Shown in pieces: positions 1 to 57,420 of a stretch of DNA of 64,000 bases. How positions within the stretch are numbered: position 1 is the stretch's first letter; every line of letters starts with the position of its first letter. The DNA comes from Acidimicrobiia bacterium. GTDB lineage: Bacteria; Actinomycetota; Acidimicrobiia; Spongiisociales; ZC4RG35. Location: positions 12,099 to 76,098 of the forward strand of contig DATLEZ010000040.1 in the NCBI GenBank assembly GCA_035525055.1. The letters are read 5' to 3'. Both the position numbers and the translations under genes were made by a program. The notes below the pieces were generated by a model. The model was given only the letters and a program-made list of their open reading frames with translations. It was not told where the DNA came from and did no database searches.

Positions 1-119
1 ACCAACTCGTGTTTCATCGTCATCGAAACGAGTGAGGACGGCGACGACAACAGGTCGAAGCAACCGGACCCGGCACGAAACACCCAAGGCCAGCACCTTC
101 GAAATCTAGTGTCGTCAAT

Positions 120-1133
120 GTGTTTGCAGGCCGCTACCAGATCCAAGATCGGCTTGGCTCTGGAGGTTTCGGAACGGTTTATCGAGCTTACGATCACAAC
201 CTCGGACGAGAGGTCGCGCTCAAGCTGTTCCGCCAAGCCGACCCCGCAAGCCTCGCCCTGTGGGAAGCGCGTGTTTTGGTGGCGTTGGAAAGCGACCACG
301 TGTTGCGGGTCCTGAATGCTGGCATTCATCAGGACATCCCGTTCCTTGTGACCCTGGTGGCTGCTCTACGGTCGACCGAGGATCAACTCACGGTTCAGCC
401 CAGGGGGATAAGAGCCGACCTGGTCATCCGATGGAGTCGCCATTGTCTGATCGGGGTTCGCTTGTGCCACGAGTACCAACTCGTCCATCGCGACATCGCA
501 CCGTCCAACATCTTTCTCGACAGCGAGCATCACGCGCGTTTGGGAGATTTTGGTGTAGCCGCGACAGTTGCGGCCGATGGCACAGCTCCCTCGCAAGGCA
601 AACTTCGAATTCGGGCGCCGGAGGCCTATACCGATGGTCATGTCACGCAGCAATCGGACCTCTACTCAGTCGGTGTGACAATGTGGAGGCTCATCACTGG
701 GGCATGGCCTTTCGAAGCAGAAACAGATGCAGCTCTTATTGATGCGATTGTGAATCAGAGGCTCGTTCGATTGCGTGACCTGGCTCCGCACGTGCCTCAA
801 CGCCTGGCGCTCTTTGTAGAACATGCGATGGCGAGGCAACCCGAATCCCGTTACAGGCATGCCGCTGAGATGCTTGACTCCCTTGCGAGATTGGCACCAC
901 TTCGGCGCGCATGGGTTGAAGTGGCTCCAGGCCCTGGCGAAGACAGAGTTTGGCGGAGTTTCGCCACCAACACGCAATCGCCTCTCGTGGTTACGACCTC
1001 AAACCCCGGACGAGGAACGTGGACTGTCGTAACCCGATGGCAACATTCAGGACGCAGACTCCGAGACTTCTGTTCCAACGGGCCGAGGGCCACACTAGGC
1101 AGTCGACTGCGATCGATATTTGACAACGCTTAG
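120..1133 (+). CDS. Hanks-type Ser/Thr protein kinase, soluble, with a ~70-aa C-terminal tail of unknown function
   Basis: GTG-start 337-aa ORF. Ordered kinase motifs: GSGGFGTVY (Gly loop), VALK, HRDIAPSN, DFG, APE. Confidence 0.85.
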   Translation: MFAGRYQIQDRLGSGGFGTVYRAYDHNLGREVALKLFRQADPASLALWEARVLVALESDHVLRVLNAGIHQDIPFLVTLVAALRSTEDQLTVQPRGIRADLVIRWSRHCLIGVRLCHEYQLVHRDIAPSNIFLDSEHHARLGDFGVAATVAADGTAPSQGKLRIRAPEAYTDGHVTQQSDLYSVGVTMWRLITGAWPFEAETDAALIDAIVNQRLVRLRDLAPHVPQRLALFVEHAMARQPESRYRHAAEMLDSLARLAPLRRAWVEVAPGPGEDRVWRSFATNTQSPLVVTTSNPGRGTWTVVTRWQHSGRRLRDFCSNGPRATLGSRLRSIFDNA

Positions 1134-1386
1134 CGAGGCGCCGAATCCGCGCATCTCATCGAACTCGAAGACTCAAATAGGACAGGAGATAACTGGACGG
1201 GCGGCGGAGTCGCTCTACTCAGTCATTCGCTGGATATTCGCTTGCTTGCACACCGTTAGGCCCTGCTTGCTTGCCAAGCATCCAAGGGCGCCGAGTCGTC
1301 TGGCGATGTCGTATAGGATGACCGGCTGGCTGGTCCAGGAGTGAGGGGTCCAGGATTGGCCACGCCTCCTTTGAGGGCGACGATTA

Positions 1387-1671
1387 TTAGCGGGGCGAGG
1401 TCCGCGTTCGAGGAGGTCGCGCGGCGTCGTAATGAACTCGGCACAGCCCTCGACCAACGTGGCGACGGCCGCAGCCTTCGACCGAGCAGAGCCGCGGGGA
1501 CCGAAGGAGAGCAGGACCGCTCGACCCTCGGTACGAACGGACCGGGCCGAGGGGATCACCCAGCCGGAGGAAGCGTTGGTAATGCTTTGGACACCAACCG
1601 CGGGAGACCCGCCGTTCCGAGCAGCCCTCGATCGAGCAAGGACGAATCCCCCAAGTGTCAGCCTTCGCCAA
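1387..1671 (-). CDS. Small Cys/His-rich protein with a duplicated zinc-finger-like motif (the type usually found N-terminal to HNH nucleases; no nuclease domain here)
   Basis: 94 aa with two copies of C-x2-EGC-x7-G-x-C-x2-HY (CSIEGCSERRVSRGWCPKHY and CSVEGCGRRHVGRGLCRVHY). Confidence 0.5.
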   Translation of the reverse strand: MAKADTWGIRPCSIEGCSERRVSRGWCPKHYQRFLRLGDPLGPVRSYRGSSGPALLRSPRLCSVEGCGRRHVGRGLCRVHYDAARPPRTRTSPR

Positions 1672-1683
1672 TCGCCCTCCTAA

Positions 1684-1881
1684 TCACTGCGCTCGAGCCT
1701 TACCCGCAGCTGTCAGCCGGTCCGCTCCCAACCCGGTCGACTCGGTGTAGCCGGCGGCACGGGCGAAGTTCCAGGCGCCTCTGACTTCATCCTCAGTGTG
1801 GCCGGCCGCCATCAACTGCTGTGAGGCGAGGCGGGGGTCGGGTCCGGCGAGGATCGCCAGCAGTCGGTCGACGAGTTCCAT
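1684..1881 (-). CDS. Hypothetical small protein (65 aa)
   Basis: ORF 12 nt upstream of 1387..1671 on the same strand. No recognisable motif. Called only from position and length. Confidence 0.3.
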   Translation of the reverse strand: MELVDRLLAILAGPDPRLASQQLMAAGHTEDEVRGAWNFARAAGYTESTGLGADRLTAAGKARAQ

Positions 1882-1972
1882 GGTTTAGAGCCTCCATGGG
1901 CTGCCGTACCTCCTGGGGGAGACGATAGCGACAATCAGATAGTCTCATGCCTATACGAGGGGGTGCCATCCT

Positions 1973-2545
1973 GTGCGTCGAGGTTTGATCCTGACCCTGA
2001 TCTTGGTCGCGTGTAGCGGGACCGCGTATACAACCACCCTGGCGCCTGAGACCGCCACCAGCCGTGCAACTACAACGGCTCCGACGACCACGATGGTGCC
2101 GATCGCTCCCTTGGGTATGTCAGTTGCTGACATCGCTAACCGTTGGAACGCGGCCGCGGCAGAGGCATCGAGCGATCGACTCATCAACGGGGCAATACCG
2201 GCGGTCAGGACAGCGGATGGTTACTCCGCCCACACATGGACGTTCACGGATCGACTGACCCTTGAAGCCATTAGCGACGGTGCGGAAGTGGGCGAACTCA
2301 TTCTGAGGTTGGTACCAGCTGGTGCCGAATCGGATGCCGACTCGACCTTGGCAATGCTGACCGACATTCTCACGTTTCTAGTCACTGTCGATTCAGCTTT
2401 GGAGGCAGGGTCACGGGGTGACATCCTCCAGGACTTGGTCCAACTCAACGGGATTGATGTCGATACGGAGGTCACCCGCAATGGGATCGTCTACTCGATG
2501 AACAATTCCAGCGGGCTGATTGTTCTGAGCGCCTCCCGGCCCTGA
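1973..2545 (+). CDS. Putative lipoprotein
   Basis: GTG start. N-terminus MRRGLILTLILVACSG has a signal peptide plus lipobox (LVAC), followed by a Thr/Ala-rich linker. Confidence 0.6.
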   Translation: MRRGLILTLILVACSGTAYTTTLAPETATSRATTTAPTTTMVPIAPLGMSVADIANRWNAAAAEASSDRLINGAIPAVRTADGYSAHTWTFTDRLTLEAISDGAEVGELILRLVPAGAESDADSTLAMLTDILTFLVTVDSALEAGSRGDILQDLVQLNGIDVDTEVTRNGIVYSMNNSSGLIVLSASRP

Positions 2546-2558
2546 AAGGTCCGGGTAC

Positions 2559-3149
2559 ATGGAAGGCAATCACCAGCCACTCGTCGCACCTCCGCGACGG
2601 AACATAGAAAACCACCGGGATGCAGAGTTGTTTGTAGCGGAATGGATGCATTGGCTCGGCTGGGCAGGGGCGTCGGCAACCGCCCCTACCTCAGATGGAG
2701 GTGTTGACGTTGCCTCCAGCGGCGCCGTGGCTCAGGTCAAGTACGGTTCAGCCAGGGTCGGGCGTCCGGCGCTTCAGGCCCTCTTTGGCGCTGCCCAGGC
2801 TCTCGGCAAGCGCGCACTCTTCTTCTCTGCAGGTGGGTTTTCGCCTCAAGCGATCACCTGGGGGAACCAAGTAGGCATGGCCCTATTCGGTTTTGACTCG
2901 ACCGGCGAGGTGCGAGCGGTCAATTCCGCCGCAACGGCCCTGTTGCGTGAGGCGAAGGGCCTGCCCCCACCCCGCAACTGGACGTGGCTGATCTTTGTGA
3001 TACTGCTTGTTCCAGTCGCTTATTGCGGGAAGGTCGGATTCGATATCGCCGGCTTTTGGGGTTCGTTCTTCGGAGCCCTCCTTGGGATGGCAATATCCGG
3101 CGGAATTGCCAACTCCATCCAGGCCTTGGCTAAAGGTCTGAAGCCCTGA
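2559..3149 (+). CDS. Mrr-cat type restriction-endonuclease-like domain fused to two C-terminal TM helices
   Basis: PD-(D/E)xK-like core SDGGVDV...AQVKY with flanks typical of Mrr_cat. C-terminal hydrophobic helices WTWLIFVILLVPVAY and FFGALLGMAISGGIA. Confidence 0.65.
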   Translation: MEGNHQPLVAPPRRNIENHRDAELFVAEWMHWLGWAGASATAPTSDGGVDVASSGAVAQVKYGSARVGRPALQALFGAAQALGKRALFFSAGGFSPQAITWGNQVGMALFGFDSTGEVRAVNSAATALLREAKGLPPPRNWTWLIFVILLVPVAYCGKVGFDIAGFWGSFFGALLGMAISGGIANSIQALAKGLKP

Positions 3150-3422
3150 GAACGCGCCAGAACGGACCCCCTCGAGTAGCCCCCTCAGGCTCTGGCAACT
3201 TTTGGTGACGCTTGCTTGGGCACCGCGGTGGCGCTTGCTCGGACACCCCGGAATTGGGTGCCGCTTCCCTCCTGAACCCGCGTAGAAGGACAAGGACCTA
3301 CTTCAAGGAACCTCGGCAAGAGTCGGCTGTCTCCCGGCGAGACCGTGATATCACCTTTCATTACCAGCACCCCCGGTTAGTCTTCTCGGACGAGAGCCAT
3401 GACATGACGCGCCTGCCCGCCG

Positions 3423-4262
3423 TTGCCTTGCGATCTCCAGTTGCCCAGGATGCTTGACGATCTACCCAATTTTACCAATCCGCCGGTTGTCGAGCGAGCA
3501 CTCTCAGTCGCTTTCTCTCCACTGGAAGGACTCTCGATCGCCCACCTGGCCAAATTCTGGTCCCGGGTAGAAAAGGAATTTCCTCGAGCCCACAGTCAAC
3601 CGCCCTATGAGATGCCAATAGAGCGACTAGACGGGCCGCCGGGTCTGCCCAGTATCGAGCTCCGTCTGGAGACAACGATTCGGCCTCGCATGCTGTTCGT
3701 AACCGAGGATGACCAAGAACTGATCCAGGTTCAAGCAGATTGGTTCGCGTTCAATTGGCGGCGGCCTTCGGGGGCATCGGTCGAATACTCAAGATACCCA
3801 ACCGGGCGCGAGAGGTTCGAGACGTACTTCGACAAATTCCTAGCGTTCGTTGAAGAGACCCAAACAGGCAAGATCGTTCCGCATCAATGCGAAGTGACTT
3901 ACATCAATCATGTTCCGTCTTCCTTGTCCGAGCTCGATCAGTTGTCTCAAAAGGTAACTCTGGTCAATTCTCCGGATTTGGCTGCGCCCGCAAGATCGGT
4001 TGAAGGAGTCCAGTACGCGATGTCGATGCGACTCTCGGATCCCAACTTGGGCGACTTTGGGCGACTCCATCTTCAAATCCAACCTGGCGCTACCAGTGAC
4101 GGTAAGTCGTTGTACGTCATTACTTTGACGGCCAGAGGACGGCCGCTTGGACACGGAACTGAGGGCGTTCTTGGCTTTTTCGACCTTGGTCGCAAAGCAA
4201 TCGTCCGCAATTTTGTTTCGTTTACGACCGAGTCAATGCATCGTGTCTGGGGACTCTCGTAG
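3423..4262 (+). CDS. TIGR04255-family uncharacterised protein
   Basis: N-terminal FTNPPVVERALSVAF... block matches my recollection of the TIGR04255 N-terminus. The true start may be the ATG at 3450 rather than the TTG at 3423. Confidence 0.55.
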   Translation: MPCDLQLPRMLDDLPNFTNPPVVERALSVAFSPLEGLSIAHLAKFWSRVEKEFPRAHSQPPYEMPIERLDGPPGLPSIELRLETTIRPRMLFVTEDDQELIQVQADWFAFNWRRPSGASVEYSRYPTGRERFETYFDKFLAFVEETQTGKIVPHQCEVTYINHVPSSLSELDQLSQKVTLVNSPDLAAPARSVEGVQYAMSMRLSDPNLGDFGRLHLQIQPGATSDGKSLYVITLTARGRPLGHGTEGVLGFFDLGRKAIVRNFVSFTTESMHRVWGLS

Positions 4263-4723
4263 TGGCATCTGTCAGGGTGAGTTCGTTAATGGATCCCAAA
4301 TCCGCTCAGACCTCATCGCCATCAGGATGGGACCTTGGCGGAGGGGCAGGTATCGTCGCTGTTACCTTCTGGACTTCGAGTCAGCGGGATCCGTGGCACC
4401 CGTATGCAGTCGACCGGATCAAACGAGCGTTTATTCGTCTTGACGATTGGGACGGAGAGGGGTCGCTGGCGGTAACTCCCATCGCCGCTAGAAGGGCAGC
4501 CCGACTCGCCGAGGTCCTAGATGATGCGGACCTCATAAGACCATTCGTAACGTCAGGAAGCGAAGGCGGAATCATATTTGAGTGGGTAACCGCTGATTTC
4601 TCCTTGGAGCTCGAAGTGACGCCAACCGGGCGCCTTGAAGGCTCTTACCGAGATCCAACACAGTTCTGGCGAGCCGACGCAACTGATCCCAGGGTCCAGG
4701 AAGCTCTATCTCGGCTCCGATAG
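4262..4723 (+). CDS. Hypothetical protein (153 aa), translationally coupled to 3423..4262
   Basis: GTG start overlaps the upstream stop (TAGTG). No recognised domain. Confidence 0.45.
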   Translation: MASVRVSSLMDPKSAQTSSPSGWDLGGGAGIVAVTFWTSSQRDPWHPYAVDRIKRAFIRLDDWDGEGSLAVTPIAARRAARLAEVLDDADLIRPFVTSGSEGGIIFEWVTADFSLELEVTPTGRLEGSYRDPTQFWRADATDPRVQEALSRLR

Positions 4724-4741
4724 GGCCCCGGCGGAGGGTGC

Positions 4742-5212
4742 TTGCCCAACCAATACGAGTCCCCTTACGTCGACGATGTATCTCTTCCGTTGGGCCTGAT
4801 TGTGTACCGAGCTGTCAACCCCACATTCGTGGACTGGCTCGCCCTCGATACGACAGGCAATCCTCGGATGAACTCGAACGTTTTCGGAGATTACTCAGCG
4901 GCTAAGGCGGCGGAGCTGGGCTACCCAGGTCCGGCCATGTCGGTATGCACGGACGACATTCTCACGTCCGAGAACCAACCCATCACTAGGGTTCTCGATC
5001 GTTTCGACGACAACTATGGGATTGCCGAGTTCACAGTCGCGAGTCTAAGGTCCGTGACACCTCCACTTGGAATGTGTCGGGATCCAAAGCCTCAAGCCCC
5101 CTGGCACGCGTTGGTTTTCGCAACAACTCGCCCACGGCTCGATAGTGAGAAGGCAGCTCTTCGCAATATGTCACGTCTCGTTCGACTTCCGCGACGCTTA
5201 GATGGTGAGTAG
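4742..5212 (+). CDS. Hypothetical protein (156 aa)
   Basis: TTG start just after GGAGGG, 18 nt after the previous stop. No recognised domain. Confidence 0.45.
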   Translation: MPNQYESPYVDDVSLPLGLIVYRAVNPTFVDWLALDTTGNPRMNSNVFGDYSAAKAAELGYPGPAMSVCTDDILTSENQPITRVLDRFDDNYGIAEFTVASLRSVTPPLGMCRDPKPQAPWHALVFATTRPRLDSEKAALRNMSRLVRLPRRLDGE

Positions 5213-5380
5213 CTCCTACGTATTCACCTTGGAGCGGACCCTTGTTGAACAACTGTCCGTCTTCCTAAATCTTCTCTAATCACCTTCTCCGCCGACAGGG
5301 CATAACTGGACAAGTTGCGGAGACGGAACAACCGGACTTTCCTTGAGTTTTCAGCCACTAGCACAGCGGAAAGTCCGGGT

Positions 5381-5422
5381 TGCTTGCAAAGCAGGCGCTC
5401 TGCCGGGCTGAGCTACGTCCCC
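5381..5422 (-). pseudogene. Truncated tRNA-Ala(TGC): 5' 42 nt only
   Basis: The minus strand reads GGGGACG TA GCTC AGCCCGGCA GAGC G CCTGC TTTGCAA GCA. This gives the acceptor 5' strand, a complete D arm, and an anticodon stem-loop with TGC. The match stops 3 nt into the 3' anticodon stem and no T arm follows. Confidence 0.6.
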
Positions 5423-5554
5423 GGGATGGGTTGGAAACGCGGTTGGAAACCGGCACGACCGACCCGTTAGGCACAGATTAGGTGGCCCTACAGCGCATAA
5501 CTACGGTCGGAAGCTGTCAGGGAGACAGCGGGAGCCCATACGGGCGCGGGCAGT
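5415..5554 (+). repeat. Conserved element, copy A (right arm only; left side replaced by the tRNA-Ala fragment)
   Basis: ACGTCCCC-GGGATGGGTTGGAAACGCGGTTGGAAACCGGCACGACCGACCCGT...ACAGCGCATAACT...hairpin...GGGCGCGGGCAGT. Near-identical blocks occur at 10060-10213 and 13414-13560. Confidence 0.8.
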
Positions 5555-5586
5555 AGCCCTTCAGTCAATCAGCGGGAAAGGGAGGG

Positions 5587-6102
5587 CTAAGCGCTACGTT
5601 CGAGGGCGAGAGCCGCAGTCGACGTGTCGCTCAGGGCCGGGGCGAAGAATGCCTCGGTCTGAGCGTTGCGATGCGCCTGCCAGGCCAACATCGACAACTG
5701 GCCCTTCTCGAAACCGAAATGGTGGAGCCGTTCCCGAGGCAGATGATCATCGACGATCCGGTTAGCCGACTCGGCCGAAGCTCGCAGTCGTCGCTGGATC
5801 TCTACGAAGACAGGATCGTGTTCAGGGAATGCACGCAGATGTTCTGCGCGGTTGTAACCGGTTAGGACATCTTCAGACGTCTGGTCAAGGCGGATCCGGA
5901 TGTACCCGTCGTTCTGCCCGGGGGCCTCATCGATGACACCGTATTCGGCGGAGAGCCGGAATCCATCACCAGTCCTTGAGTCCCTCAGAGAGCCCCTTCC
6001 GAACCGGCCCGGACACCCGACTTCCACAGGGCTGAAGTAAGTGTTGAACACCACGCGGACTCTTGGGCATGAAGCTGGCCAGGTTCGATTCGGTGAGGTC
6101 AA
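5587..6102 (-). CDS. Hypothetical protein (171 aa)
   Basis: ORF 14 nt downstream of 6116..7210 on the same strand. No motif recognised. Start uncertain. Confidence 0.35.
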   Translation of the reverse strand: MTSPNRTWPASCPRVRVVFNTYFSPVEVGCPGRFGRGSLRDSRTGDGFRLSAEYGVIDEAPGQNDGYIRIRLDQTSEDVLTGYNRAEHLRAFPEHDPVFVEIQRRLRASAESANRIVDDHLPRERLHHFGFEKGQLSMLAWQAHRNAQTEAFFAPALSDTSTAALALERSA

Positions 6103-6115
6103 GGCCCGTGTCGTG

Positions 6116-7210
6116 TCAAGTCGACTCTCGCACCCAGACCGAGAGGTTGGCCGGCTGCATCGTCACGCTCGCCACCAACTCCAACTCCCGAGCTACCTGC
6201 CCCAAGTTCACTTGCGAAGCCAAGCGCCGAGCAAACGACTCCATCGTCGCTTCGCTGTCATACCGGAAACGATTGAACCGACGATCCACCACGCCCTGGA
6301 CTCTTCGGCGCAACGGGTTGAACAACGCGGCCGCCAATAACGTTGAACCCGCCACCGCCACCTCGCCCTGCGAGGGCAACATCCTTCCCAACACAAACAC
6401 CGCCCCCAAATAGACCCCGGCCAGAACCGCTGTCAACACTCCATAGCTCACCGTCCTCGAAATGATTCGATCGATCTCATACAGCCGGTACCGCAAAACC
6501 GCAACAGCGATCGCGATCGGAAGCAATCCCATGGCCACCGGAACTGCCGTCGCCTGGAGGGACTCGTTTTGCAGCTCTCCCAGCATGACGGCCACCGGCA
6601 GTAGGGCGGCGGCGCTAATAAACCACTTGAGCTGCTCGCGCTCCGTGGATTCGCCCATTCGAAAACGGCTAACCAGAGATGCCACGCCTCCCGCCAGCGA
6701 GCCAAAGAGGAAGATGGCGGCCACCCCGACGAGACTTGGTATCCAGAGGTTTCCAATGACCGCGGCGGGCACGAAGGCGGCGCCGGCCCAAACCACCCAC
6801 CACCAGCGTCGGTTCGGCGGCCGTCCGGTCGGGAATAGGACGAGCAATGGGCCTAACACCAGGCCGAGCCCGGCGAACAAGACCACCGAGAGGATCACCT
6901 CGTTCACTTCCGGTGAACGCCCCAACTGCCCAATCCATTCGGCAGCATTCACGATTGCAAACATGAGCCCGGCAGTCGATAGAAGCCAACCGATGCTGTG
7001 GTCGGGTCTGCGGACTGCCAGAAGCCACCCGGTGATCGTCATACTGGACACCGCGAACAGGAAGGGTATGTCGCGCCACCCTGAGCCGGTCGTCAAGAAC
7101 CAGATCGCGCTGGCGGCGACCGTCGCTGTTAGCAAACCGATGGCGACAACTCGCGCCCGGGTCACGTCGTGCATCGTACCTCCGACCAAGAGGTTGCCTC
7201 CCCCCATCAT
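6116..7210 (-). CDS. Polytopic membrane protein with a conserved C-terminal cytoplasmic block (paralog of 10395..11564)
   Basis: Many hydrophobic helices, then LRYRLYEIDRIISRTVSYG...LFNPLRRRVQGVVDRRFNRFRYD...MQPANLSVWVR. The same blocks occur in 10395..11564. Confidence 0.7.
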   Translation of the reverse strand: MMGGGNLLVGGTMHDVTRARVVAIGLLTATVAASAIWFLTTGSGWRDIPFLFAVSSMTITGWLLAVRRPDHSIGWLLSTAGLMFAIVNAAEWIGQLGRSPEVNEVILSVVLFAGLGLVLGPLLVLFPTGRPPNRRWWWVVWAGAAFVPAAVIGNLWIPSLVGVAAIFLFGSLAGGVASLVSRFRMGESTEREQLKWFISAAALLPVAVMLGELQNESLQATAVPVAMGLLPIAIAVAVLRYRLYEIDRIISRTVSYGVLTAVLAGVYLGAVFVLGRMLPSQGEVAVAGSTLLAAALFNPLRRRVQGVVDRRFNRFRYDSEATMESFARRLASQVNLGQVARELELVASVTMQPANLSVWVREST

Positions 7211-7245
7211 CTCGTTCCCTACCCGGTCGACGAGGACCTCCAGGA

Positions 7246-7872
7246 TTAAAAGAGAGCCGGCCCAGTGGAAAGGCTATCCTCCCGCCGAGGAGGGACGACG
7301 AAGCCTGGGATGTGGGCAGGGGCGAACGGTACCGAGACGATGGCAGCGGCCTTGAGCGGCTGGTGGCGGTTCTGCGCTCTGTCGAACAAGAACCCGGTCC
7401 ACCCAACCTCTTCGGCGTAATTGGAGAGCACGAAGGCGAAGACCAGGCTGGGCAGGATCAGGGTGAAGAATCTCGCCCAATTCTCTGTCACCGCGGTCAA
7501 TGGAAGCGTGCCGGCCAACCCGGTTGCAAGGAGGAGGGTGAGGACGGTGGGTCCCAGGAGCGCGAGCAGATACCAGCCGATGCCGACCCGCCAGCGCAGG
7601 CACCGGTGGGCGAGATCCCGCATTCCGGCCTTTCCTCGCACCGCCGACGTGACGATGAATGCCGGAACCGCGCTGCCAAGGACGTGGGCGAGTAGGTCGT
7701 ACGGGGCGTGCTCGTAGGGGAGCAGGTCTCGTCGGGTCAACGCTGGCGACAGGGCGGTCGCCACAGTGACGACATAAGCCATGACGAGGAATGCGGCGAC
7801 AGGGTGGCGCGCAATCCACATCCGAATCGGTGAGTACCAAGGGGCCCTGGGTTGAAGGGTGTCGTCGGACAT
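7246..7872 (-). CDS. CPBP (CAAX-protease-like) family membrane protein, possibly C-terminally truncated
   Basis: Multi-TM ORF with AEEVGWTGF (EExxxR-like motif 1, R replaced by T) and FAPAH (FxxxH). The later His motif is not seen before the stop. Confidence 0.45.
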   Translation of the reverse strand: MSDDTLQPRAPWYSPIRMWIARHPVAAFLVMAYVVTVATALSPALTRRDLLPYEHAPYDLLAHVLGSAVPAFIVTSAVRGKAGMRDLAHRCLRWRVGIGWYLLALLGPTVLTLLLATGLAGTLPLTAVTENWARFFTLILPSLVFAFVLSNYAEEVGWTGFLFDRAQNRHQPLKAAAIVSVPFAPAHIPGFVVPPRREDSLSTGPALF

Positions 7873-8315
7873 GTCCCCGATCCCGCTTCGGGCGGCGCTT
7901 CACAAGGCTACTCCCCGGGAGATTCCCGATGTCGGGGTCTAGCCTCGGTCGTGTGGGGTTGGAAACAGAACCATTTCGAAGCGAAGCGCGGGGCCATGGG
8001 CAGCCACGGTCTGAGCCAATGAAACCGAGTGGGTGATCCGACGGTCCCACCCGGTCCGTGGATATAGGGCGCAATCGGCATCTCGCCCAACCGGGCGGAG
8101 GCTCCGCTCAAGGGGGGCGGCACATCGTCCCTGTCAGTTTTGCCTGTATCGGATGTGACAGCCCCACGTGAGGTAGGCCGATTCACGACCCGACACCCAC
8201 GTCGCGTCGCCCGGAAAGGCGGCTCAGTTGCGATCGGTTCGAATCGGACCACCCGAGTAACATCCGGGTCAGCAGATCCCTGCTTCGCCTCCTCCTCGGA
8301 GTAGCAAGAGTCCCC

Positions 8316-9533
8316 ATGTCGTCGCAACGGCCTACCGCCACGGCTGAGCAGACATTCTGGGAACGCCTGGCAGCCCGTACCAGGCTTGCCGGTGCTGCAG
8401 CCACGATCGAGAGCCCGAGGACGGTCATGCGAATCGCAACCGGGGCGGCCTGGGCGGCCGCCGCCAATGCGGTTTTCACCGCTTTCGCATTCTTCTGGTT
8501 CGACGAGCCGGCGGCGGGAATCATGACCGTCGCGGTAACCGTGTCATACCTAGGCGCCTGGGTCTGGTACGCAAAGACCGGCAGCGTCCTCGACCTGGCC
8601 GTGATCACGGTGGTGGCGAGCACCATCGACATCTTGGCCGTCCACATGCTTCTTGGGGGGTACGCCAACTCGGGCAGCTACATGGTGTGGGGCATCACTC
8701 AGGTGTTGATCGCGGCGATCGTGTTCCCTCGAAGGGTCACACTCGGCGTCGTGGCCCTCTTCGCTGCCAGTGGAATCGCCTTCGGTGTGCTGGAGCCTTG
8801 GCTGGCCGGGGGAAGGCCTCCACCGGATCCGACCTTGAGGGCGCTCCTATTCGTCATCGTGCTACTGGGCAATCTCGGATTGCTCGCCCTCATTCTGACC
8901 TCGATTCTGAACCGACTGTCCGCCGAGCGCCGCCGCGCGGAGAGCCTGCTGTTGAATGTGCTCCCCGCCGTGATCGCAGCCGAACTGAAAGAGCACGGCG
9001 AGATCAAAGCCCGACGTTTCGACTCGGTCAGTGTGCTCTTCGCCGACGTCGTCGGGTTCACCCCGATGACGGCCTCAATCGAGCCGGAAGTGATGGTCGA
9101 CCGGCTCAACGTGATCTTCACCCATTTCGACACGCTGGCGGACCGCTACGGCTGCGAGAAGATCCGGACCATCGGAGATGGATACATGGTCGCCGCCGGC
9201 GTCCCGGTTCCGAAAGACGACCACGCCCACGCCTTGGCTGCAATGGCTCTCGACATGCTCGACTACATCGAGGACGGACCGTTTCGTCTCCGTATCGGCA
9301 TCGACACCGGCCCGGTCGTGGCAGGTGTCATCGGCACGAGGAAGTTCCAGTACGACGTGTGGGGCGACACCGTAAACACGGCGAGTCGGATGGAGTCCCA
9401 TGGCGAGCCCAATCGGATCCACGTCACAGAGTCTGTGCGGGCCGTCCTTGCCGATCGCTACCAGTTCCAGCCGAGAGGCACCATCTCGGTTAAGGGCAAG
9501 GGGAAGATGGAGACCTTTTTCCTCCTCGGATAG
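8316..9533 (+). CDS. Membrane-anchored class III adenylate/guanylate cyclase
   Basis: About 200-aa multi-TM N-terminus, then cyclase core FADVVGFT, RTIGDGYM and VWGDTVNTASRME. Confidence 0.9.
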   Translation: MSSQRPTATAEQTFWERLAARTRLAGAAATIESPRTVMRIATGAAWAAAANAVFTAFAFFWFDEPAAGIMTVAVTVSYLGAWVWYAKTGSVLDLAVITVVASTIDILAVHMLLGGYANSGSYMVWGITQVLIAAIVFPRRVTLGVVALFAASGIAFGVLEPWLAGGRPPPDPTLRALLFVIVLLGNLGLLALILTSILNRLSAERRRAESLLLNVLPAVIAAELKEHGEIKARRFDSVSVLFADVVGFTPMTASIEPEVMVDRLNVIFTHFDTLADRYGCEKIRTIGDGYMVAAGVPVPKDDHAHALAAMALDMLDYIEDGPFRLRIGIDTGPVVAGVIGTRKFQYDVWGDTVNTASRMESHGEPNRIHVTESVRAVLADRYQFQPRGTISVKGKGKMETFFLLG

Positions 9534-9966
9534 CGGAGCTGCGCATATGGCAGGAACCCAACGAATCCAAGAGATTTCAGGGACTGGACGCTGCTTTAGC
9601 AACGGACTTCGAGCCCAGCGGTACCTCGCACCGTTCCCATTCCCTGGACTAGGCAGTTCCCGAGGAGGGTCTGTTGTGTGCCTTCGCCAAGATCGTCTTA
9701 GGTATTCGGTGACGCGCCGCAGCGCAGAGCGAAACCTGGGACACCTAGCCGCCGAGCCTCAAGGGCAAAGCTCTCGGGCGTTCCTGCGATGCGGATCAGC
9801 CCGTTGAGTGGCTGAAGCACCAGGTGGCGACGCCCATGGTCCTCGATCCAGAGGTATCCGGCATTCATGGCAAGGCGAGCCGCGTTCCTGGAAAAAACGA
9901 ACCCACGACTCAGAAGGACCCCCGGTTCCATTTAGTCGCGAGCAAACTGGCGATGACGGGAGCCGG

Positions 9967-10213
9967 CGCGTTCCAGAAATCGACCAAACGCGTTCCACAG
10001 ACAACCGGTAAGGACCGGATCCGGCCCATAGCCATTGGTCGGATCCAGTTCTCAACCAATCCCACGTCCCCATGTCCCCCCGGGATGGGTTGGAAACGCG
10101 GTTGAAAACCGGCACGACCGACCCGTCGGACACAGATTAGGTGGAGCTACAGCGCATAACTTCCGTCGGACCCTGTCCGGGAGGCCCAGAACGCCCGGTC
10201 GGGCGCGGGCAGT
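9967..10213 (+). repeat. Conserved element, copy B (both arms)
   Basis: CGCGTTCCA at 9967 and 9989 (22-bp spacing; another at 9881), core ACGTCCCCATGTCCCC, inverted TGGAAACGCG at 10091, then the conserved 120-nt right arm ending GGGCGCGGGCAGT. Confidence 0.8.
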
Positions 10214-10394
10214 TACGAAGGACGTCTGATCCCGGCTTCGCAGGTCTAGAGGCGGATCGTAGGAGTGTTTGACCGGCTTCCCCGTAGGTGAAACCGTCAT
10301 GGCATGCAACGGGACCGCCTGTTTCGTTACCTGGGCGGTGCCCAACCACCCCGTCCCGGATCGTGAAACGTAGGAACCGCATAACCTCCAGCCG

Positions 10395-11564
10395 ATGCTG
10401 ACTGCTCGCAGGGCTCGCATCGGCTGGCTGGTGTCCATGATGATTCTTCTTCCGGCCGCCGTAGTGGGCCTCGGCGCTGTGGTCCAACGGCCCGATCTGG
10501 TCTCGTCTCCTGTATTCCTTGATCTTGTGGGCCGCGTTGGGATTTCGCCGGTCGCCGCGGCGTGGCTCGGATTCGTATTGCCGACCGCTTTGGCGTTCGT
10601 AGTGGCGGCTGTCATTCGCCGGGGACGGCCCGATGATCCCTCCGCCCTCCTATTCGGGCTATCGGTGGTATCGCTCTACCTCATCGTCGCTGGAGTGGGG
10701 ACGGCACTGTCCGAGGTGACAGCGCATGCGGTGGGTCGTTTTGTTGACGTCTTGGCAGTTGTCCTCTTGACGTTGGGCTTGTACCTCTTCCCAAACGGGC
10801 GCTTCCTACCACGATGGACCCGATGGCCCGCGATCGCGATGGCCGCTGTCAGCATCGCTTTTCCGGATCTGATCGGCGCTGCGAGGTCGATGGGCACCGA
10901 CAGTCCCGGCACCTTTTCGCTCGAAACGAGACACCTTGCCGCGGCGGTCGCTGTGTTGGCGCTGGGGACCTGGCTGCCGGCTCAGGTCTATCGATATCGG
11001 CGACTCTCGACACCTCTCGAGAAGCTTCAAACTCGTTGGATCATCTTCGGATTTGCACTCGTTCTCATCGGCTCACTGGGCGCCATTCTCCTCAGAGCGA
11101 TTGGAATCCCGTCGAGGTGGGTGGCGTGGCCGCTGCTGTTGGCGGCGGCAGGCACCTTCATATTGCCAGCGGCTGCCGGCCTCGCAGTCCTTCGATACCG
11201 GCTTTATGAGATCGATCGCATCATCTCTCGCACTGTCACATACTCGATTTTGGCTGGCCTGTTGGCCGCGTTGTACCTGGCCACGGTCTACGCCATGACG
11301 CGGCTCGTACCGGTGACGGGTGATCTAGCGGTGGCGGGTTCTACACTTGCGATTGCCGCCCTCTTCAACCCACTTCGGCGACGTGTTCAGCGGGTGGTGG
11401 ACCGCCGCTTCAACCGGTCGCGTTACGACGCCGTATTGATGATCGAGTCGTTCGCCTTGAGACTTCGCTCGGGAATCGAGCTAGGCGAAGTGCTGGCCGA
11501 TCTCCAGCAGGTACTGGTTCACACCGTCGAACCAGCGTCTACCAAGATTTGGTTGCGAGCATGA
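10395..11564 (+). CDS. Polytopic membrane protein, paralog of 6116..7210
   Basis: Multi-TM, with C-terminal LRYRLYEIDRIISRTVTYS...LFNPLRRRVQRVVDRRFNRSRYD...VEPASTKIWLR. Confidence 0.75.
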   Translation: MLTARRARIGWLVSMMILLPAAVVGLGAVVQRPDLVSSPVFLDLVGRVGISPVAAAWLGFVLPTALAFVVAAVIRRGRPDDPSALLFGLSVVSLYLIVAGVGTALSEVTAHAVGRFVDVLAVVLLTLGLYLFPNGRFLPRWTRWPAIAMAAVSIAFPDLIGAARSMGTDSPGTFSLETRHLAAAVAVLALGTWLPAQVYRYRRLSTPLEKLQTRWIIFGFALVLIGSLGAILLRAIGIPSRWVAWPLLLAAAGTFILPAAAGLAVLRYRLYEIDRIISRTVTYSILAGLLAALYLATVYAMTRLVPVTGDLAVAGSTLAIAALFNPLRRRVQRVVDRRFNRSRYDAVLMIESFALRLRSGIELGEVLADLQQVLVHTVEPASTKIWLRA

Positions 11565-11879
11565 ACCGAGTTTCCTCCAACCGGAAGCGGCCGCTACCTC
11601 CCTTTGAGCTCGAAACGGGAAGCAACCCCATGCACCGAGGACCGGAGCACGATGACATTGTCAGCAACGGAGGTCGATGGTTAGCCGACTGCCGGCTGGC
11701 CGACCTGCTGCCAGGCCGTAGTAACTCACGGGGTTCGGGCACCGGTCGGGTTGAGGTGCGCAGCCAGACTGCCCGGTGGGAGGCCACAGCGTTTCGGGTC
11801 GCGGTGCAGATCGCCCGCCTCCGTTACGGAGGCAGCCAGCACCGTCAACAGCAATCGGCGGATGCCCCGCGTGGTCACG

Positions 11880-12638
11880 TCAGCTCTCCACGGTCAGTGT
11901 TCCCACCATTCCCGCATCGACGTGTCCGGGGATGGCACAGACGAACTGGTACTGCCCAGGAGCCGCATCGAACGAGGCTCCCAGCTCCGCGCCCACGGGC
12001 ACCCGGAGATCGACACCGAGCTCGTCGACGGTGAAGGTGTGCCAGAACAAGTCCCTGTTCTCCATCGTGACGACCACACTTCCTTCGTTGACTTTCAGCT
12101 CGGTTTCCGAGAAGGCCAAGTTCTCGGACACAAGTGCGATATCCCCGGCGCCGATTTCGACGCGGCTGATGCTCGCACCCCAGACCAGGAGGACTCCCAG
12201 CAGCAGAACACATACGCCCATACTGAGCCATGGCCCGGTAGTCGACCCAGAAGCCCGGTTGGCAAAGAACCCGATAGCGGCAATGAGGGCGAGGAGGGAG
12301 ACCGCGGCCACGATCGACGAGATCAGGACGGAAGACATCGGCGATCCCTCCCGGATGTTGGTCATCGCCGCGGTCAGCATGAAATACAGAGTGATCGCAC
12401 CGGCGAGGGCCACCCCGGTCGCACCGAGGGTCCCTCGGCGCACCCGGGTAAGCCACGTGGCCAGAGCGAACCCCAACGCTACCGCTCCTCCTTCGAGGTC
12501 ACCTAGAACCGCCGAGATCGTCCCGATAGCCACTGTGGCCACGATGCCGCCGATGAACAGCAACCGGCGCCAGGTCAATCCCCGGCCAGCGGGCTCCGCC
12601 GTGATCGCATCAGGCCTTGTGACAGAACTCACGAGCAC
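11880..12638 (-). CDS. Membrane-anchored cupredoxin-domain protein
   Basis: About 5 TM helices, then a C-terminal beta-rich domain with a type-1 copper ligand pattern (WHTF ... FVCAIPGHVDAGM = C-x4-H-x4-M). Confidence 0.65.
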   Translation of the reverse strand: MLVSSVTRPDAITAEPAGRGLTWRRLLFIGGIVATVAIGTISAVLGDLEGGAVALGFALATWLTRVRRGTLGATGVALAGAITLYFMLTAAMTNIREGSPMSSVLISSIVAAVSLLALIAAIGFFANRASGSTTGPWLSMGVCVLLLGVLLVWGASISRVEIGAGDIALVSENLAFSETELKVNEGSVVVTMENRDLFWHTFTVDELGVDLRVPVGAELGASFDAAPGQYQFVCAIPGHVDAGMVGTLTVES

Positions 12639-13072
12639 TCTCCTTCGCCGTCAACGAGCGACGCCAGGGCCGCAACGAGCATGAGGATCGGAAGCACGAT
12701 GTTGGCTACCGCCACAACGGTGTCGGCCGGTGGCAAGTCTCGAGTCACGATCCTGTGGCTCACCGGCTCGCTGACTGCCCCGGCGACGAACAGGGCTGAG
12801 AGAAAGGCGAGCCAGGCTCGTGCCCGCCGACCATTCGCGTCCGCCCTCGGAGCCAGGCCGAGCGACAACCACATCTGGACGACGAGGTTCCAGGGGGCAG
12901 CGAGGCCCGCGCCGTGGACGCCACCCAAGACGCTTCGTCTCACATCGGATCCCATATCGAGCCCCAGAGCCCGGGCAGGGTATCCGCGCTTGATCGAGAG
13001 ATAGCTCCCAGCGACGAATGTCACGGTGTATGCGGTGGCCGCCGATCGGGCGATCCTGAGAGGACGGGTCAT
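12629..13072 (-). CDS. Hypothetical membrane protein (147 aa)
   Basis: About four hydrophobic helices. Overlaps the start of 11880..12638 by 10 nt, consistent with an operon. Confidence 0.45.
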   Translation of the reverse strand: MTRPLRIARSAATAYTVTFVAGSYLSIKRGYPARALGLDMGSDVRRSVLGGVHGAGLAAPWNLVVQMWLSLGLAPRADANGRRARAWLAFLSALFVAGAVSEPVSHRIVTRDLPPADTVVAVANIVLPILMLVAALASLVDGEGECS

Positions 13073-13318
13073 TTCGAACCTCCTTTTCTCCTTTCTAGCA
13101 ATGGAACGTTCCGCAAGGGTTACGGGATTTCGACAAGTTGACCAGACTCCTCACCCAGACCGACCGCTGCCGGCTGCATGGTCTCGGAGACCACTCCCAG
13201 CCATCCGTCCACCACTCCATCCGGATCGACCCTCTCCTCCATGGTGCTCGCAAAACCTTGGACCACCCGGTCCGCATCGGATCGGGACCGGTGAACCTTC
13301 GGTCCACCGAGTCCGACA

Positions 13319-13560
13319 CGCGTTCCAGGATCGGGCAAAACGCGTTCCAGGGTCAATGTTTCAGCGGGCGAAAACCCAAGCACCGTGGGGTTCAGGAGGT
13401 TTCCAACCAATCCCACGTCCCTGGGTTGGAAACGCGGTTGAAAACCGGCACGACCGACCCGTTGCACACAGAATAAGTGTTGTTACAGCGCATAACTACC
13501 GGCGGAACCGTTGCCCCTGGTCTGAGACCAGGGACAACGTCAACCACGCCGCCCGGCAGA
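13319..13560 (+). repeat. Conserved element, copy C (both arms)
   Basis: CGCGTTCCAG at 13319 and 13341 (22-bp spacing), core ACGTCCC, inverted TGGAAACGCG at 13427, conserved right arm, different hairpin (GTTGCCCCTGGTC TGA GACCAGGGACAAC). Confidence 0.8.
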
Positions 13561-13606
13561 ACGCGTGCAACACACTGTGAACCCGGCCGCGGCCAGGAAG
13601 CTGGAC

Positions 13607-14536
13607 CTACTTGTCGAACTCGATCCCGTCGATGACTCCGATGAAGGCCTTGGCCACTACGCGGTAGCCCTTGGGGTTGAGATGTCGGTTGGCCTTGGCA
13701 TCAGGGTCGTCGGGACACATGAAGCTGAGCTTGCAGAGGACGTCGACGTTGTCGGCGATGCCGTTCATCGGGCTCTCGTCAGTGAAGTCCCCGGCGCTGA
13801 ATGCGGTGTAGACATCGGCTACCTGGGCACCGGTCGCTGCGTAAGCCTGGGCGAGGGCACCGTTGAACGCCTGGGCAAGGGAGTCGCTGAGGAGGGCGAA
13901 GGCCGGATCAGGTGCCTGCTGTCCAGGGACTCCGCTGAAGAACCCGATCGCCGCCGCCACAAACGGGTTGTAGTAGTTCATGGCCACGACGGGCCCGGTG
14001 TATCCACCGACCTGTCTGAGGGTCCCCACGATCTGGGCCACCTTGCCGGCGATGGCCTGGATCTGCGCACCGAGGCAGGATGGATCATTGAATCCACAGA
14101 CCCCCAGTGCTTGCGTGATGTCATTGGCGCCGATGTCGATTGTGATCAGCACAACATTCTCCGCCGCCAGCGTCGCCAGTGCGTCTCCCATCTGTGATCC
14201 TGTCGCATAGTCGGCGGTGCAGGTGGAAGGCTGACCGGACACATTGACACCACCCATGAACTGGTCGGTCGTCTCACCGGGACATCCCAGCTTGACGTGC
14301 CCCAGATCAGCGGCAACCCGCCCGCCGATCCGTTGGAAGAGTTGGTCGGTGTATGACTGATCCGAGAATTCGATGCTGTTCCCTTCGGCATCGGCCAGCG
14401 TGCCGGCCGCAAGGGAGGTCCCCAGGGACAGATACACCGCTTCCTCGGGAGAGGCGGCCACCGCCGCCAAGGGTTGGGCGACGACTATCAGCGCCATCAC
14501 CACGGTCAGGAGAACCCGTCTCGTGCTCACGATCAC
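13607..14536 (-). CDS. Secreted SGNH/GDSL-family hydrolase
   Basis: Signal peptide MIVSTRRVLLTVVMALIVVAQPLAAVAA. Block I SLGTSLAAG and block III IGANDI. Confidence 0.75.
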   Translation of the reverse strand: MIVSTRRVLLTVVMALIVVAQPLAAVAASPEEAVYLSLGTSLAAGTLADAEGNSIEFSDQSYTDQLFQRIGGRVAADLGHVKLGCPGETTDQFMGGVNVSGQPSTCTADYATGSQMGDALATLAAENVVLITIDIGANDITQALGVCGFNDPSCLGAQIQAIAGKVAQIVGTLRQVGGYTGPVVAMNYYNPFVAAAIGFFSGVPGQQAPDPAFALLSDSLAQAFNGALAQAYAATGAQVADVYTAFSAGDFTDESPMNGIADNVDVLCKLSFMCPDDPDAKANRHLNPKGYRVVAKAFIGVIDGIEFDK

Positions 14537-25483: not shown

Positions 25484-25561
25484 GGGCCCATAGCTCAGCT
25501 CGGTTAGAGCGCGTCCCTGATAAGGACGAGGTCCGTGGTTCAAGTCCACGTGGGCCCACCA
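25484..25561 (+). tRNA. tRNA-Ile (anticodon GAT), CCA encoded
   Basis: Perfect cloverleaf by hand folding: GGGCCCA/TGGGCCC acceptor, GCTC/GAGC D stem, CGTCC-CTGATAA-GGACG anticodon arm, CGTGG-TTCAAGT-CCACG T arm, A-CCA. Confidence 0.95.
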
Positions 25562-46976: not shown

Positions 46977-47024
46977 TCCCTGATAGAGGACGAGGTCCGT
47001 GGTTCAACTCCACGTGGTCCCACC
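46977..47024 (+). repeat. Imperfect direct copy of the 3' half of tRNA-Ile (att-like remnant or decayed pseudo-tRNA)
   Basis: TCCCTGATAGAGGACGAGGTCCGTGGTTCAACTCCACGTGGTCCCACC versus 25514-25560: 45 of 47 identical plus a 1-nt insertion that makes an 8-nt anticodon loop. The 5' half is not foldable. Confidence 0.75.
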
Positions 47025-52412: not shown

Positions 52413-52413
52413 G

Positions 52414-54345
<1,932 letters not shown>

Positions 54346-54526
54346 TCAGGGGGAAGAATTATGGAACCTGAGTTATGAAATCGGGACCCCCGTTCGGGAC
54401 CTTCCGGGCCACCGATTTCATGTTTGTAATTATAGCTCAACCGGTGACAGATTTGGCCATTCCGGGCAACCCTGGATGAGCCGAAAGGCCAATAGTTATG
54501 GGCGATTTTTGGATGGGCGAGAAACC

Positions 54527-54862
54527 TCAGCGTTGATTGGGGCCAACCACTCTGACAGTCTCGACGACGCCCTCGCCGAGTTGCTCATCGAGGCGCCTCA
54601 TCAGGTCCCCGATGGCGTACCGGAGCATGCCCACGAGGGCGGGTGAAATGGCCTCGACGACCAGTTCTCCCTCGCGAATAAATAGGGGCCGGCTCTGCCC
54701 GGACCAAGGCGCCCCGGCCATCTCGTCCCACCCCTCGTCCAACGATCTACTGACCGAAGGAGAAGGCAAGCCGAGCCGGGCCAAGAGTGACTCAAGCACC
54801 CCCTCGAGAGGTTCAGGTTGCATGGCGAAGAGCGTGGTACGTGGTACGTGGTACGTGGGCAT
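54527..54862 (-). CDS. DUF721 (DciA-like) protein
   Basis: Position between recF and gyrB. ...LFIREGELVVEAISPALVGMLRY... pattern. The true start may be the ATG at 54823. Confidence 0.7.
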   Translation of the reverse strand: MPTYHVPRTTLFAMQPEPLEGVLESLLARLGLPSPSVSRSLDEGWDEMAGAPWSGQSRPLFIREGELVVEAISPALVGMLRYAIGDLMRRLDEQLGEGVVETVRVVGPNQR

Positions 54863-56245: not shown

Positions 56246-56323
56246 TATTCGGTTACGTCTACGTTCTACGCCAAACCTAGGCGGGAGTTCTTACGTAAGA
56301 CGTAGAACGTACAATGTAGAACG

Positions 56324-57400: not shown

Positions 57401-57420
57401 AACGAAGCGTCCCTTCTAGA

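Follow-up and report, generated by a model that had tools for sequence, protein, structure and literature searches.

Repeats stacked at a tRNA-Ala gene of an Acidimicrobiia bacterium are probably the two ends of an undescribed, Tn5-like family of mobile elements

Introduction

What is a near-identical block of DNA with no evident coding capacity doing at three places, always in the same orientation, in one stretch of an Acidimicrobiia genome? The stretch comprises 64,000 nucleotides of contig DATLEZ010000040.1 and is referred to below as the window; the three copies of the block are called A, B and C. A preliminary description, made from the sequence alone, had left two readings for them, namely a structured RNA family with a variable stem, or the DNA of a recombination or transposition site, the latter either with attP-like arms or as a small non-autonomous element. 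Here we analyse the copies together with related loci from public genomes and metagenomes. The evidence leads us to regard the repeats as probably both ends of mobile elements in an undescribed, Tn5-like family which targets the 5' end of tRNA genes, brings a promoter with it and is stacked in the window at a tRNA-Ala gene.

Results

Anatomy of the three copies

A 39-mer, GGTTGGAAACGCGGTTGRAAACCGGCACGACCGACCCGT, starts at positions 5429, 10088 and 13424 of the window, each time on the plus strand and with 0 mismatches, and had 0 occurrences in 100 shuffles. A repeat search returned a direct-repeat family of 136 nt (5419-5554, 10078-10213 and 13414-13549), and the blocks CACAGAtTAgGTG and ACAGCGCATAACT were common to all copies, bearing out the three same-orientation copies of a near-identical block reported earlier. 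The short core ACGTCCC(C) was likewise confirmed at 5415-5422 in A, 10064-10071 in B and 13415-13421 in C, with a second, degenerate copy in B, where the core is followed by ATGTCCCCCC. To the left of the core, copies B and C carry an arm with two direct CGCGTTCCA 9-mers set 22 bp apart from start to start (9967/9989 and 13319/13341), as had been described; these are the only 2 such pairs in the whole window, against 0.16 expected. The right arm had been thought to open with the same 9-mer in inverted form, which was a misreading. It begins with GGGATG, followed by GGTTGGAAAC-GC-GGTTGRAAAC, that is by a tandem pair of GGTTGGAAAC 10-mers repeating every 12 nt, and the tip of the left arm is formed by a single 10-mer in inverted form, GTTTCCAACCAATCCC.

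When the copies were aligned, invariant blocks reached about 95 nt from the core. Past this point copy C diverges and the similarity between A and B runs on to 136 nt; the right edge of similarity varies (about 95, 136 and 273 nt) and the left edge is constant at the core. The variable hairpin described earlier does exist, as GCTGTC/GACAGC in copy A and as a 13-bp stem in copy C, but its zone lies at or beyond the point at which homology between the copies fades.

The core is the start of a tRNA-Ala gene

Read on the opposite strand, the core ACGTCCCC corresponds to nucleotides 1-8 of tRNA-Ala(UGC), an identity that had gone unnoticed. At copy A the gene continues beyond the core: the reverse complement of 5378-5422 is GGGGACGTAGCTCAGCCCGGCAGAGCGCCTGCTTTGCAAGCA, the 5' part (acceptor 5' strand, D arm and anticodon stem-loop) of a minus-strand tRNA-Ala(UGC) gene, of which 5415-5422, reading ACGTCCCC on the plus strand, represent nucleotides 1-8. 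GGGGACGTAGCTCAGCCCGGCAGAGCGCCTGCTTTGCAAGCA is identical to the corresponding part of the intact tRNA-Ala(tgc) genes which ARAGORN found directly against the right arm of the same element in four other Acidimicrobiia contigs (L002, L003, L004 and L005). The earlier placement of copy A in an empty gap was therefore wrong, since a tRNA-Ala remnant lies on one side of it and the remnant of a transposase gene, described below, on the other, both of them previously missed. Two types of site could be distinguished, the first with the order tRNA, core and right arm (window copy A and L002-L005) and the second with the order left arm, core and right arm (window copies B and C, L001 and L006). In exact-pattern scans of the public genomes and metagenomes the element was found only in Acidimicrobiia, and the right arm had no copy in viral contigs.

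The tRNA-Ala gene of the window is itself broken (5295-5424, minus strand). Past the anticodon loop it has a 12-bp hairpin, CCGGACTTTCC...GGAAAGTCCGG, instead of the 3' strand of the anticodon stem, the variable loop and the T arm, and the CGTCTCC acceptor 3' strand is still present near 5310. ARAGORN did not call this remnant in the window. The missing 3' half was searched for in the window and is absent, so that a functional tRNA-Ala(UGC) gene must lie elsewhere.

A transposase family predicted from its remnant beside copy A

The open reading frame (ORF) at 5587-6102 on the minus strand has homologs only in Acidimicrobiia. Longer homologs extend N-terminally to a full length of about 476 aa, and the family comprises 725 clusters at 50% identity (E<=1e-3). 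The window sequence retains homology over 5644-5979, corresponding to residues 349-459 of the 476-aa protein and including the region of the catalytic E. Full-length members gave no match to Pfam-A or NCBIfam at E<=10, ten distant members gave none to Pfam-A at E<=0.1, and sequence profiles of the family had no match in the PDB.

An alignment of 68 diverse members shows invariance at D163, G210, D265, R413 and E417 only. An AlphaFold2 (AF2) model based on the alignment of these 68 members reached a predicted local distance difference test score (pLDDT) of 93.7 and a predicted template-modelling score (pTM) of 0.91, and replaced a first model from a shallow alignment (pLDDT 60) which had given meaningless matches to PH domains. 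The best PDB match of the deep-alignment model in Foldseek was Tn5 transposase bound to its end DNA (1muh_A; E 1.4e-6, probability 1.00, 480 aligned columns), with the P-element transposase at rank 3 and Hermes at rank 32 (probability 0.54). Between the second D and the E the predicted fold contains a beta-rich insertion, as does Tn5 transposase. The invariant D, D, E triad together with the AF2/Foldseek match to Tn5 identifies the 476-aa protein as a DDE transposase with an RNase-H-like core, of which the window keeps the C-terminal remnant only. On the basis of the model we conclude that this putative enzyme is Tn5/IS4-like and that its family is undescribed with respect to Pfam, NCBIfam, the PDB and the literature.

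The same end precedes different tRNAs and the core changes with the tRNA

On the 3' side of the transposase gene, whether intact or decayed, we always found GTTTYCAACCGCGTTTCCAACCCATCCC, lying directly against nucleotide 1 of a tRNA gene. The neighbour was tRNA-Arg(CCG) in L128, L129, L132 and L133, tRNA-Arg(CCT) in L124-L126, L134, L135 and L139, and tRNA-Ala(UGC) in the family of the window; at the tRNA-Arg genes the same terminal 28 nt of the right arm lie downstream of intact transposase genes. The end is absent at the tRNA-Ile gene of the window and at the tRNA-Leu gene of L005. As one and the same end stands before three different tRNAs, it must belong to the element and not to the tRNA.

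The 8-mer between a right and a left end differs in a corresponding manner. The window, L001 and L006 have GGGGACGT at this place, and L140 and L141 have GCCCTCGT, in each case the first 8 nt of the tRNA type concerned. The order in L140 and L141 is decayed transposase gene, right end, GCCCTCGT (the tRNA-Arg 8-mer) and left end with 9-mers, and the ends are the same as those of the window. Distant lineages have the same architecture of two CGCGTTCCA boxes, about 65 nt, inverted repeat, 8-mer and tandem repeats; these junction families have repeat sequences of their own, matched at both ends, around cores such as GCCTTCGT and GCCCTCGT. Tandemly repeated cores, as in copy B, also occur at related junctions in L033 and L105, and in L033, a Microthrixaceae contig, a distant transposase homolog (24% identity) ends beside the junction. 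Left arms join unrelated DNA with breakpoints at the core (L030, L044), and different flanks were seen beside the same end, an indirect sign of movement.

Within the window, the segment of 4641 bp between copies A and B (5423-10063, named E_A) is bounded on both sides by the identical 8-mer ACGTCCCC. Comparison of GGGATGGGTTGGAAAC with the reverse complement of the left-arm tips revealed inverted repeats, with 13/16 positions matching in E_A and 15/16 in the following segment, E_B. The simplest account of these sequences would be an 8-bp duplication of tRNA nucleotides 1-8 upon insertion, with stacking by repeated insertion at one site. Copy A would then be a tRNA/end junction and copies B and C end/8-bp/end junctions.

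A number of other observations were made on these ends. Contigs assigned to very different actinobacteria, namely L061 (a Bifidobacterium breve metagenome-assembled genome), L074 (IMCC26207) and L087, contain the CGCGTTCCA pair in a sequence that resembles the left arm and continues alike for about 90 nt, which may reflect a wide host range of related elements or mis-binned contigs; no transposase homolog was found at these three loci. Contigs L132-L136, L140, L143 and L144 stop inside the transposase gene module, within about 250 nt of it or at terminal repeats, as expected if this DNA is multi-copy or polymorphic; such breaks at the ends are a further indirect sign of movement. In L128 the 3' half of tRNA-Arg(CCG) plus 25 nt of flank is repeated directly after the gene (2883-2980), which looks like what a separate integration of the classical 3'-end kind left behind at this tRNA.

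Attachment sites of a tyrosine recombinase as an alternative

The junctions can also be read as attachment sites. They show an inverted repeat of 15-16 bp on either side of a spacer of 8 bp and, about 70-100 bp off, a pair of direct repeats. This is the classic layout of attP, and the repeats might therefore be the att sites of integrative elements moved by a tyrosine recombinase, the left-arm copies being attP-like junctions of tandem, integrase-less elements (compare cis-mobilizable elements, CIMEs). The 8-bp core would be the crossover between inverted core-type sites, the CGCGTTCCA boxes would be arm-type or Xis sites, and the right arm would be an identity block restoring the promoter and leader of the tRNA after 5'-end integration. 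A similarity block of variable length with its boundary constant at the core agrees with such a scheme, and the dusA-specific integrases (PMC4482086) are a precedent for 5'-end integration with restoration of the gene start.

The layout is also compatible with transposon ends, however, and near-identical ends carry GGGGACGT or GCCCTCGT cores according to the tRNA, which fits a target duplication better than an element-encoded crossover. Co-evolving attP cores could also give tRNA-dependent 8-mers, although this would be harder to explain. The gene which always adjoins the end is that of the DDE transposase, and on the tRNA side a matching half-site is lacking. As the ends do not change while their cores differ and match the tRNA, the attP-like detail of the preliminary description seems to us less probable than a target duplication at transposon ends, while its more general proposal of recombination or transposition-site DNA with arm repeats was essentially right, the arms being best understood as the two ends of a mobile element family.

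A recombinase-like protein is nevertheless encoded beside the end, which speaks for attachment sites. In L128 and L129 the transposase gene overlaps an upstream gene for a 302-aa protein, and the module is preceded by a small divergent ORF with a helix-turn-helix (HTH) look by eye (Xis/AlpA-like) and no database match. The 302-aa family matches XerD (E 1e-6), Brujita integrase and XerA, and some distant members are annotated as integrases. Against this, the family has no conserved tyrosine, and the subfamily linked to the ends has Thr in place of Arg I and Ser in place of the HxxR His, and does not keep the His of LGH; the protein does not carry the R-K-H-R-H/W-Y set of a catalytically competent tyrosine recombinase. 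With its catalytic residues degenerate, the XerD-like protein is probably a DNA-binding, non-catalytic partner. Taken together, we consider it unlikely that the repeats are attachment sites of tyrosine-recombinase elements.

Cargo around the junction loci included methylases, Fic proteins, toxin-antitoxin-like proteins and STAND regulators, and a comparison with PHROGs gave no relevant match. In L044, L062 and L068 (Ilumatobacteraceae) a 161-aa protein, which by eye resembles a nucleotidyltransferase-type antitoxin, lies beside junction sites; it is 96% identical between two of the contigs and 83-86% identical to the third, a near-identity which suggests recently exchanged cargo.

A candidate outward promoter, and the possibility of a non-mobile repeat

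All right ends contain a TAnnnT hexamer on the minus strand, 49-56 nt upstream of tRNA nucleotide 1. The variants TAATCT, TATTCT, TATCCT, TACTCT, TACCCT and TACCAT differ only at positions 3-5, and the hexamer matches the actinobacterial -10 consensus. The candidates in the window are TAATCT at 5475-5480 (copy A) and 10134-10139 (copy B) and TATTCT at 13470-13475 (copy C), all on the minus strand, with an invariant 13-mer upstream of the hexamer at 5490-5502, 10149-10161 and 13485-13497, respectively. Similarity between copies reaches at least through the hexamer, copy C stopping just past the 13-mer, and similarity through this region is what would be needed if the end must drive a displaced tRNA. 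The blocks CACAGATTAGGTG and ACAGCGCATAACT are compatible with an outward promoter on the opposite strand, a feature not recognised earlier. We infer from the sequence that the right arm may serve as an outward promoter for the tRNA.

A promoter-like right arm would also be expected if the repeats were not mobile at all, the right arm being the native promoter or leader of alaT, or a structured leader or small RNA, with copies B and C produced by segmental duplication and acting on the expression of other transcripts, and the repeats being operators of a host regulator. The plausible -10 hexamer and the conservation of the tRNA-linked copy at the alaT locus in several genomes agree with this, and the window encodes AfsR/SARP-like regulators, members of a class that binds direct repeats spaced 11 or 22 bp. 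A hairpin, GGGUUGG/CCGACCC, tolerates two substitutions as G-U pairs, weakly favouring the plus strand.

The reading as a structured RNA family was not supported. At gathering score Rfam returned only a tRNA-Ile gene in the whole window, and at E<=10 nothing was found in 5000-14000. RNAalifold analysis of nine copies, which are too alike for a strong test of covariation, gave double changes in 0/17 pairs on the plus strand and 0/20 pairs on the minus strand, so that the Rfam and covariation checks proposed in the preliminary description yielded neither a match nor compensatory change on either strand. In single-sequence folding of both strands A and B were no better than shuffles and C was strong only by its private hairpin. 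The outer helix GGGTTGG/CCGACCC is not kept in the tRNA-Arg-linked ends (including L128 and L129), whereas the tandem 10-mers are, indicating conservation at the level of primary sequence, as expected for protein-binding sites. Segmental duplication or host regulation likewise sits poorly with the same 28 nt before three tRNA species, always downstream of a transposase gene, with left arms which join unrelated DNA at the core, and with the lack of a consistent downstream gene on either strand for A, B and C. That the repeats are not mobile DNA is in our view very improbable. Readings of the CGCGTTCCA pair as a sigma-54 promoter, an extracytoplasmic function (ECF) sigma promoter or SARP/OmpR-type boxes were dropped by eye, as there was no consistent -12/-10 element behind the pair in the four left arms.

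Layout of the proposed stack

Interpreted as a head-to-tail stack, the locus would consist of the tRNA-Ala gene, E_A (5423-10063), E_B (10082-13414) and the truncated end of a third element. The right arm of E_A, its transposase-proximal end (5423-5554), has the terminal GGGATG and 10-mers at 5429-5438 and 5441-5450. The transposase remnant is followed by three cargo genes (6116-9533), assigned by Pfam and translation to a 364-aa membrane protein (minus strand), a CAAX-protease-like protein (minus strand) and an adenylate cyclase (plus strand). The left arm, or distal end (9967-10063), contains CGCGTTCCA boxes at 9967-9975 and 9989-9997 and the terminal inverted repeat GTTCTCAACCAATCCC at 10048-10063. 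The junction core of copy B (10064-10081) consists of ACGTCCCC at 10064-10071 and then the degenerate ATGTCCCCCC.

The proximal end of E_B is the right arm of copy B (10082-10213), with 10-mers at 10088-10097 and 10100-10109. E_B carries cargo only (10395-13072), without a transposase gene: a 389-aa membrane protein (plus strand), a cupredoxin-domain protein (minus strand) and a 147-aa ORF (minus strand). Its left arm (13319-13414) has CGCGTTCCA boxes at 13319-13327 and 13341-13349 and the terminal inverted repeat GGTTTCCAACCAATCCC at 13398-13414. The core of copy C (ACGTCCC, 13415-13421) lacks five nucleotides (CGGGA) relative to A, and the right arm behind it, the truncated proximal end of the third element (13422-13509), has 10-mers at 13424-13433 and 13436-13445 and loses homology near 13509. 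The 13-bp hairpin formerly counted into copy C (13510-13540) lies outside the shared sequence and may be the terminator of the GDSL-lipase gene at 13607-14536 (minus strand).

The multi-pass membrane proteins of the two cassettes (6116-7210, minus strand, and 10395-11564, plus strand) are paralogs with no Pfam match and have in common a C-terminal block, LRYRLYEIDRIISRTV.Y...AVAGSTL..AALFNPLRRRVQ.VVDRRFNR.RYD.

The earlier suggestion of a non-autonomous element holds in so far as E_B and largely E_A lack a working transposase, but not in its form of a miniature inverted-repeat transposable element (MITE), which would be smaller than about 0.8 kb and without coding sequence; between the ends lie segments of 4641 and 3333 bp which carry genes, and the unit of about 250 bp is the junction of two elements. 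An integron was also rejected. No IntI-type or other recombinase domain was found among about 60 ORFs of the window scanned with Pfam, and the junctions are two-armed and about 250 bp long, unlike attC; the likeness is confined to stacked cassettes in the same orientation.

Chromosomal setting

The origin region lies in the same window (49968-63437), with gyrA, gyrB, dciA, recF, dnaN and dnaA (minus strand) followed by yidC, rsmG and parA. In actinobacteria ileT and alaT are typically located in the origin region, and this gene cluster places the stack in the origin-proximal ileT/alaT neighbourhood. On the other side of the tRNA remnant, positions 1-5377 have lower GC content and weak codon bias and encode a Ser/Thr kinase, an Mrr-like nuclease and hypothetical proteins; an attempt to extend past the left window edge by means of its own protein found only a 2.4-kb contig.

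A direct repeat of the tRNA-Ile(GAT) 3' end (38 nt, 95% identity) occurs at 25523-25560 and 46987-47024, with about 21.4 kb in between, as is usual where an island has integrated at the 3' end of a tRNA gene. The ORFs scanned in this segment belong to metabolism and transport (UPF0261, PEP hydrolase-like and creatininase proteins and a branched-chain amino-acid ABC system), and no integrase was found. Near the start of a periplasmic-binding-protein gene, 41496-41599 contain about 5 copies of a 21-nt tandem repeat, CGACCGAAACGACCGCTGCCC, which is probably a repetitive protein linker.

Discussion

Proposed mode of insertion

We think it likely that the repeats belong to a cut-and-paste-type family driven by the Tn5/IS4-like DDE transposase of about 476 aa, which would be co-encoded with the degenerate XerD-like protein of about 302 aa and the small HTH-looking divergent ORF. 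Insertion would take place immediately upstream of tRNA nucleotide 1, with nucleotides 1-8 duplicated as an 8-bp target-site duplication, leaving the tRNA sequence whole and depriving it of its own upstream region. The right arm would be the transposase-proximal end, in which GGGATG and the two tandem GGTTGGAAAC 10-mers are the presumed binding sites of transposase or partner, and its promoter would direct a transcript of an approximately 45-nt leader plus tRNA, the leader being trimmed by RNase P. The left arm would be the other end, with one inverted 10-mer at the tip and the two subterminal CGCGTTCCA boxes 22 bp apart. Repeated insertion at one tRNA-Ala site could then have built the stack, in which E_A and E_B may have been mobilised in trans.

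Several findings weigh against this interpretation. The Foldseek template-modelling (TM) scores are low (0.35) despite the probability of 1.00. No intact transposase is present in the window or in the fetched junction loci, and E_A and E_B may be immobile fossils as a result. No complete autonomous copy with both ends was recovered, and no left end was found within 5-10 kb upstream of the intact modules in L129, L137 and L138. The flanks of E_B are not a clean duplication, since one is ATGTCCCC plus 2 nt and the other ACGTCCC. In the JANMST contig an end/end junction lies 3' of its tRNA-Ala, 6.3 kb away, which would not be expected from a single stack at this tRNA. L128 and L129, from different species, are syntenic in the tRNA/end arrangement, which may be old and vertically inherited rather than recently mobile. 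No recombinase recurs beside the left-arm sites, where the neighbours are diverse cargo; all-vs-all ORF clustering (34 loci) and a Pfam screen of 84 neighbouring proteins gave no recurrent integrase or transposase. The candidate promoter is built on the hexamer, with an undefined -35 region, and generic promoter and terminator scans, including a sigma-70 scan, made no call at the elements.

A more elaborate scenario, to which we give slightly less than an even chance, is that a Tn5-like transposase cooperates with a catalytically dead tyrosine-recombinase-like protein which binds the ends or selects the target, that insertion at tRNA nucleotide 1 donates a replacement promoter and leader, and that repetition of this step builds integron-like cargo stacks at origin-proximal tRNA genes of Acidimicrobiia, the tRNA in some lineages having come to rely permanently on a transposon end for its expression.

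Significance

For annotation, the ORF at 5587-6102 should be recorded as a transposase pseudogene and the three "non-coding elements" as mobile-element ends. In literature searches we found no description of such tRNA-5'-end integration or of such a transposase family, the dusA integrases being the only analogy. If our interpretation is correct, these elements would represent a bacterial DNA transposon family with a target choice that is new as far as these searches show, and their landing at tRNA 5' ends with single-nucleotide precision and a built-in promoter would be a prokaryotic counterpart of the Ty3/TRE5 and Tn7 strategy. A function would be provided for a large family without a Pfam or NCBIfam model, and for its XerD-like partner, possibly a programmable site selector. 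It would also account for variable cassettes beside alaT and argT-type genes in Acidimicrobiia and for assembly breaks there, and a transposase with a defined, conserved target site could be of interest for targeted DNA insertion.

Comparison with known systems

With Tn5/IS4 elements the family shares the predicted fold and the invariant D, D, E triad; its terminal inverted repeats are likewise short, and its presumed target duplication of 8 bp is close in length to the 9 bp of Tn5. It differs in having no sequence match to Pfam, NCBIfam or PDB entries, in the asymmetry of its ends, one of which has the tandem sites and the other the separate subterminal 9-mers, in its XerD-like second protein, and in the use of one precise tRNA position where Tn5/IS4 elements choose their sites loosely.

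Site-specific insertion beside a conserved, essential gene that is not destroyed is also a property of Tn7 and Tn7-like elements (attTn7, tRNA-linked CRISPR-associated transposons), as are asymmetric ends on which several binding sites are repeated and a dedicated partner, itself non-catalytic, which could choose the target. The insertions of Tn7 lie downstream of its marker gene, come with 5-bp duplications and depend on TnsABC+D/E. No TnsABC+D/E homologs were seen here, and insertion is at the 5' end, where the promoter must be replaced.

The dusA-integrase islands and the classical integrative elements at tRNA 3' ends similarly use a conserved gene as landing site, bring the sequence which keeps it working and can stack in tandem at one site (PMC4482086, PMC4383910). 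Their tyrosine integrases are active and the elements themselves encode a copy of the gene end, whereas here the recombinase-like protein looks inactive, a DDE transposase gene lies beside the end and the 8-mer follows the target.

Mobile insertion cassettes such as MIC231 of IS231 consist of insertion sequence (IS) ends around passenger genes, with the transposase supplied in trans. E_B and largely E_A resemble them in having IS-type ends around passengers without a working transposase, and differ in being larger (3.3-4.6 kb), in being stacked at a single tRNA target and in belonging to an undescribed parent family. Finally, the eukaryotic retroelements Ty3 and Dictyostelium TRE5, which are guided by RNA polymerase III factors, also find a "safe haven" by always landing at the same position shortly before a tRNA gene. 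The landing spot is alike, but the mechanism is unrelated, and Ty3 and TRE5 do not replace the promoter of the tRNA gene.

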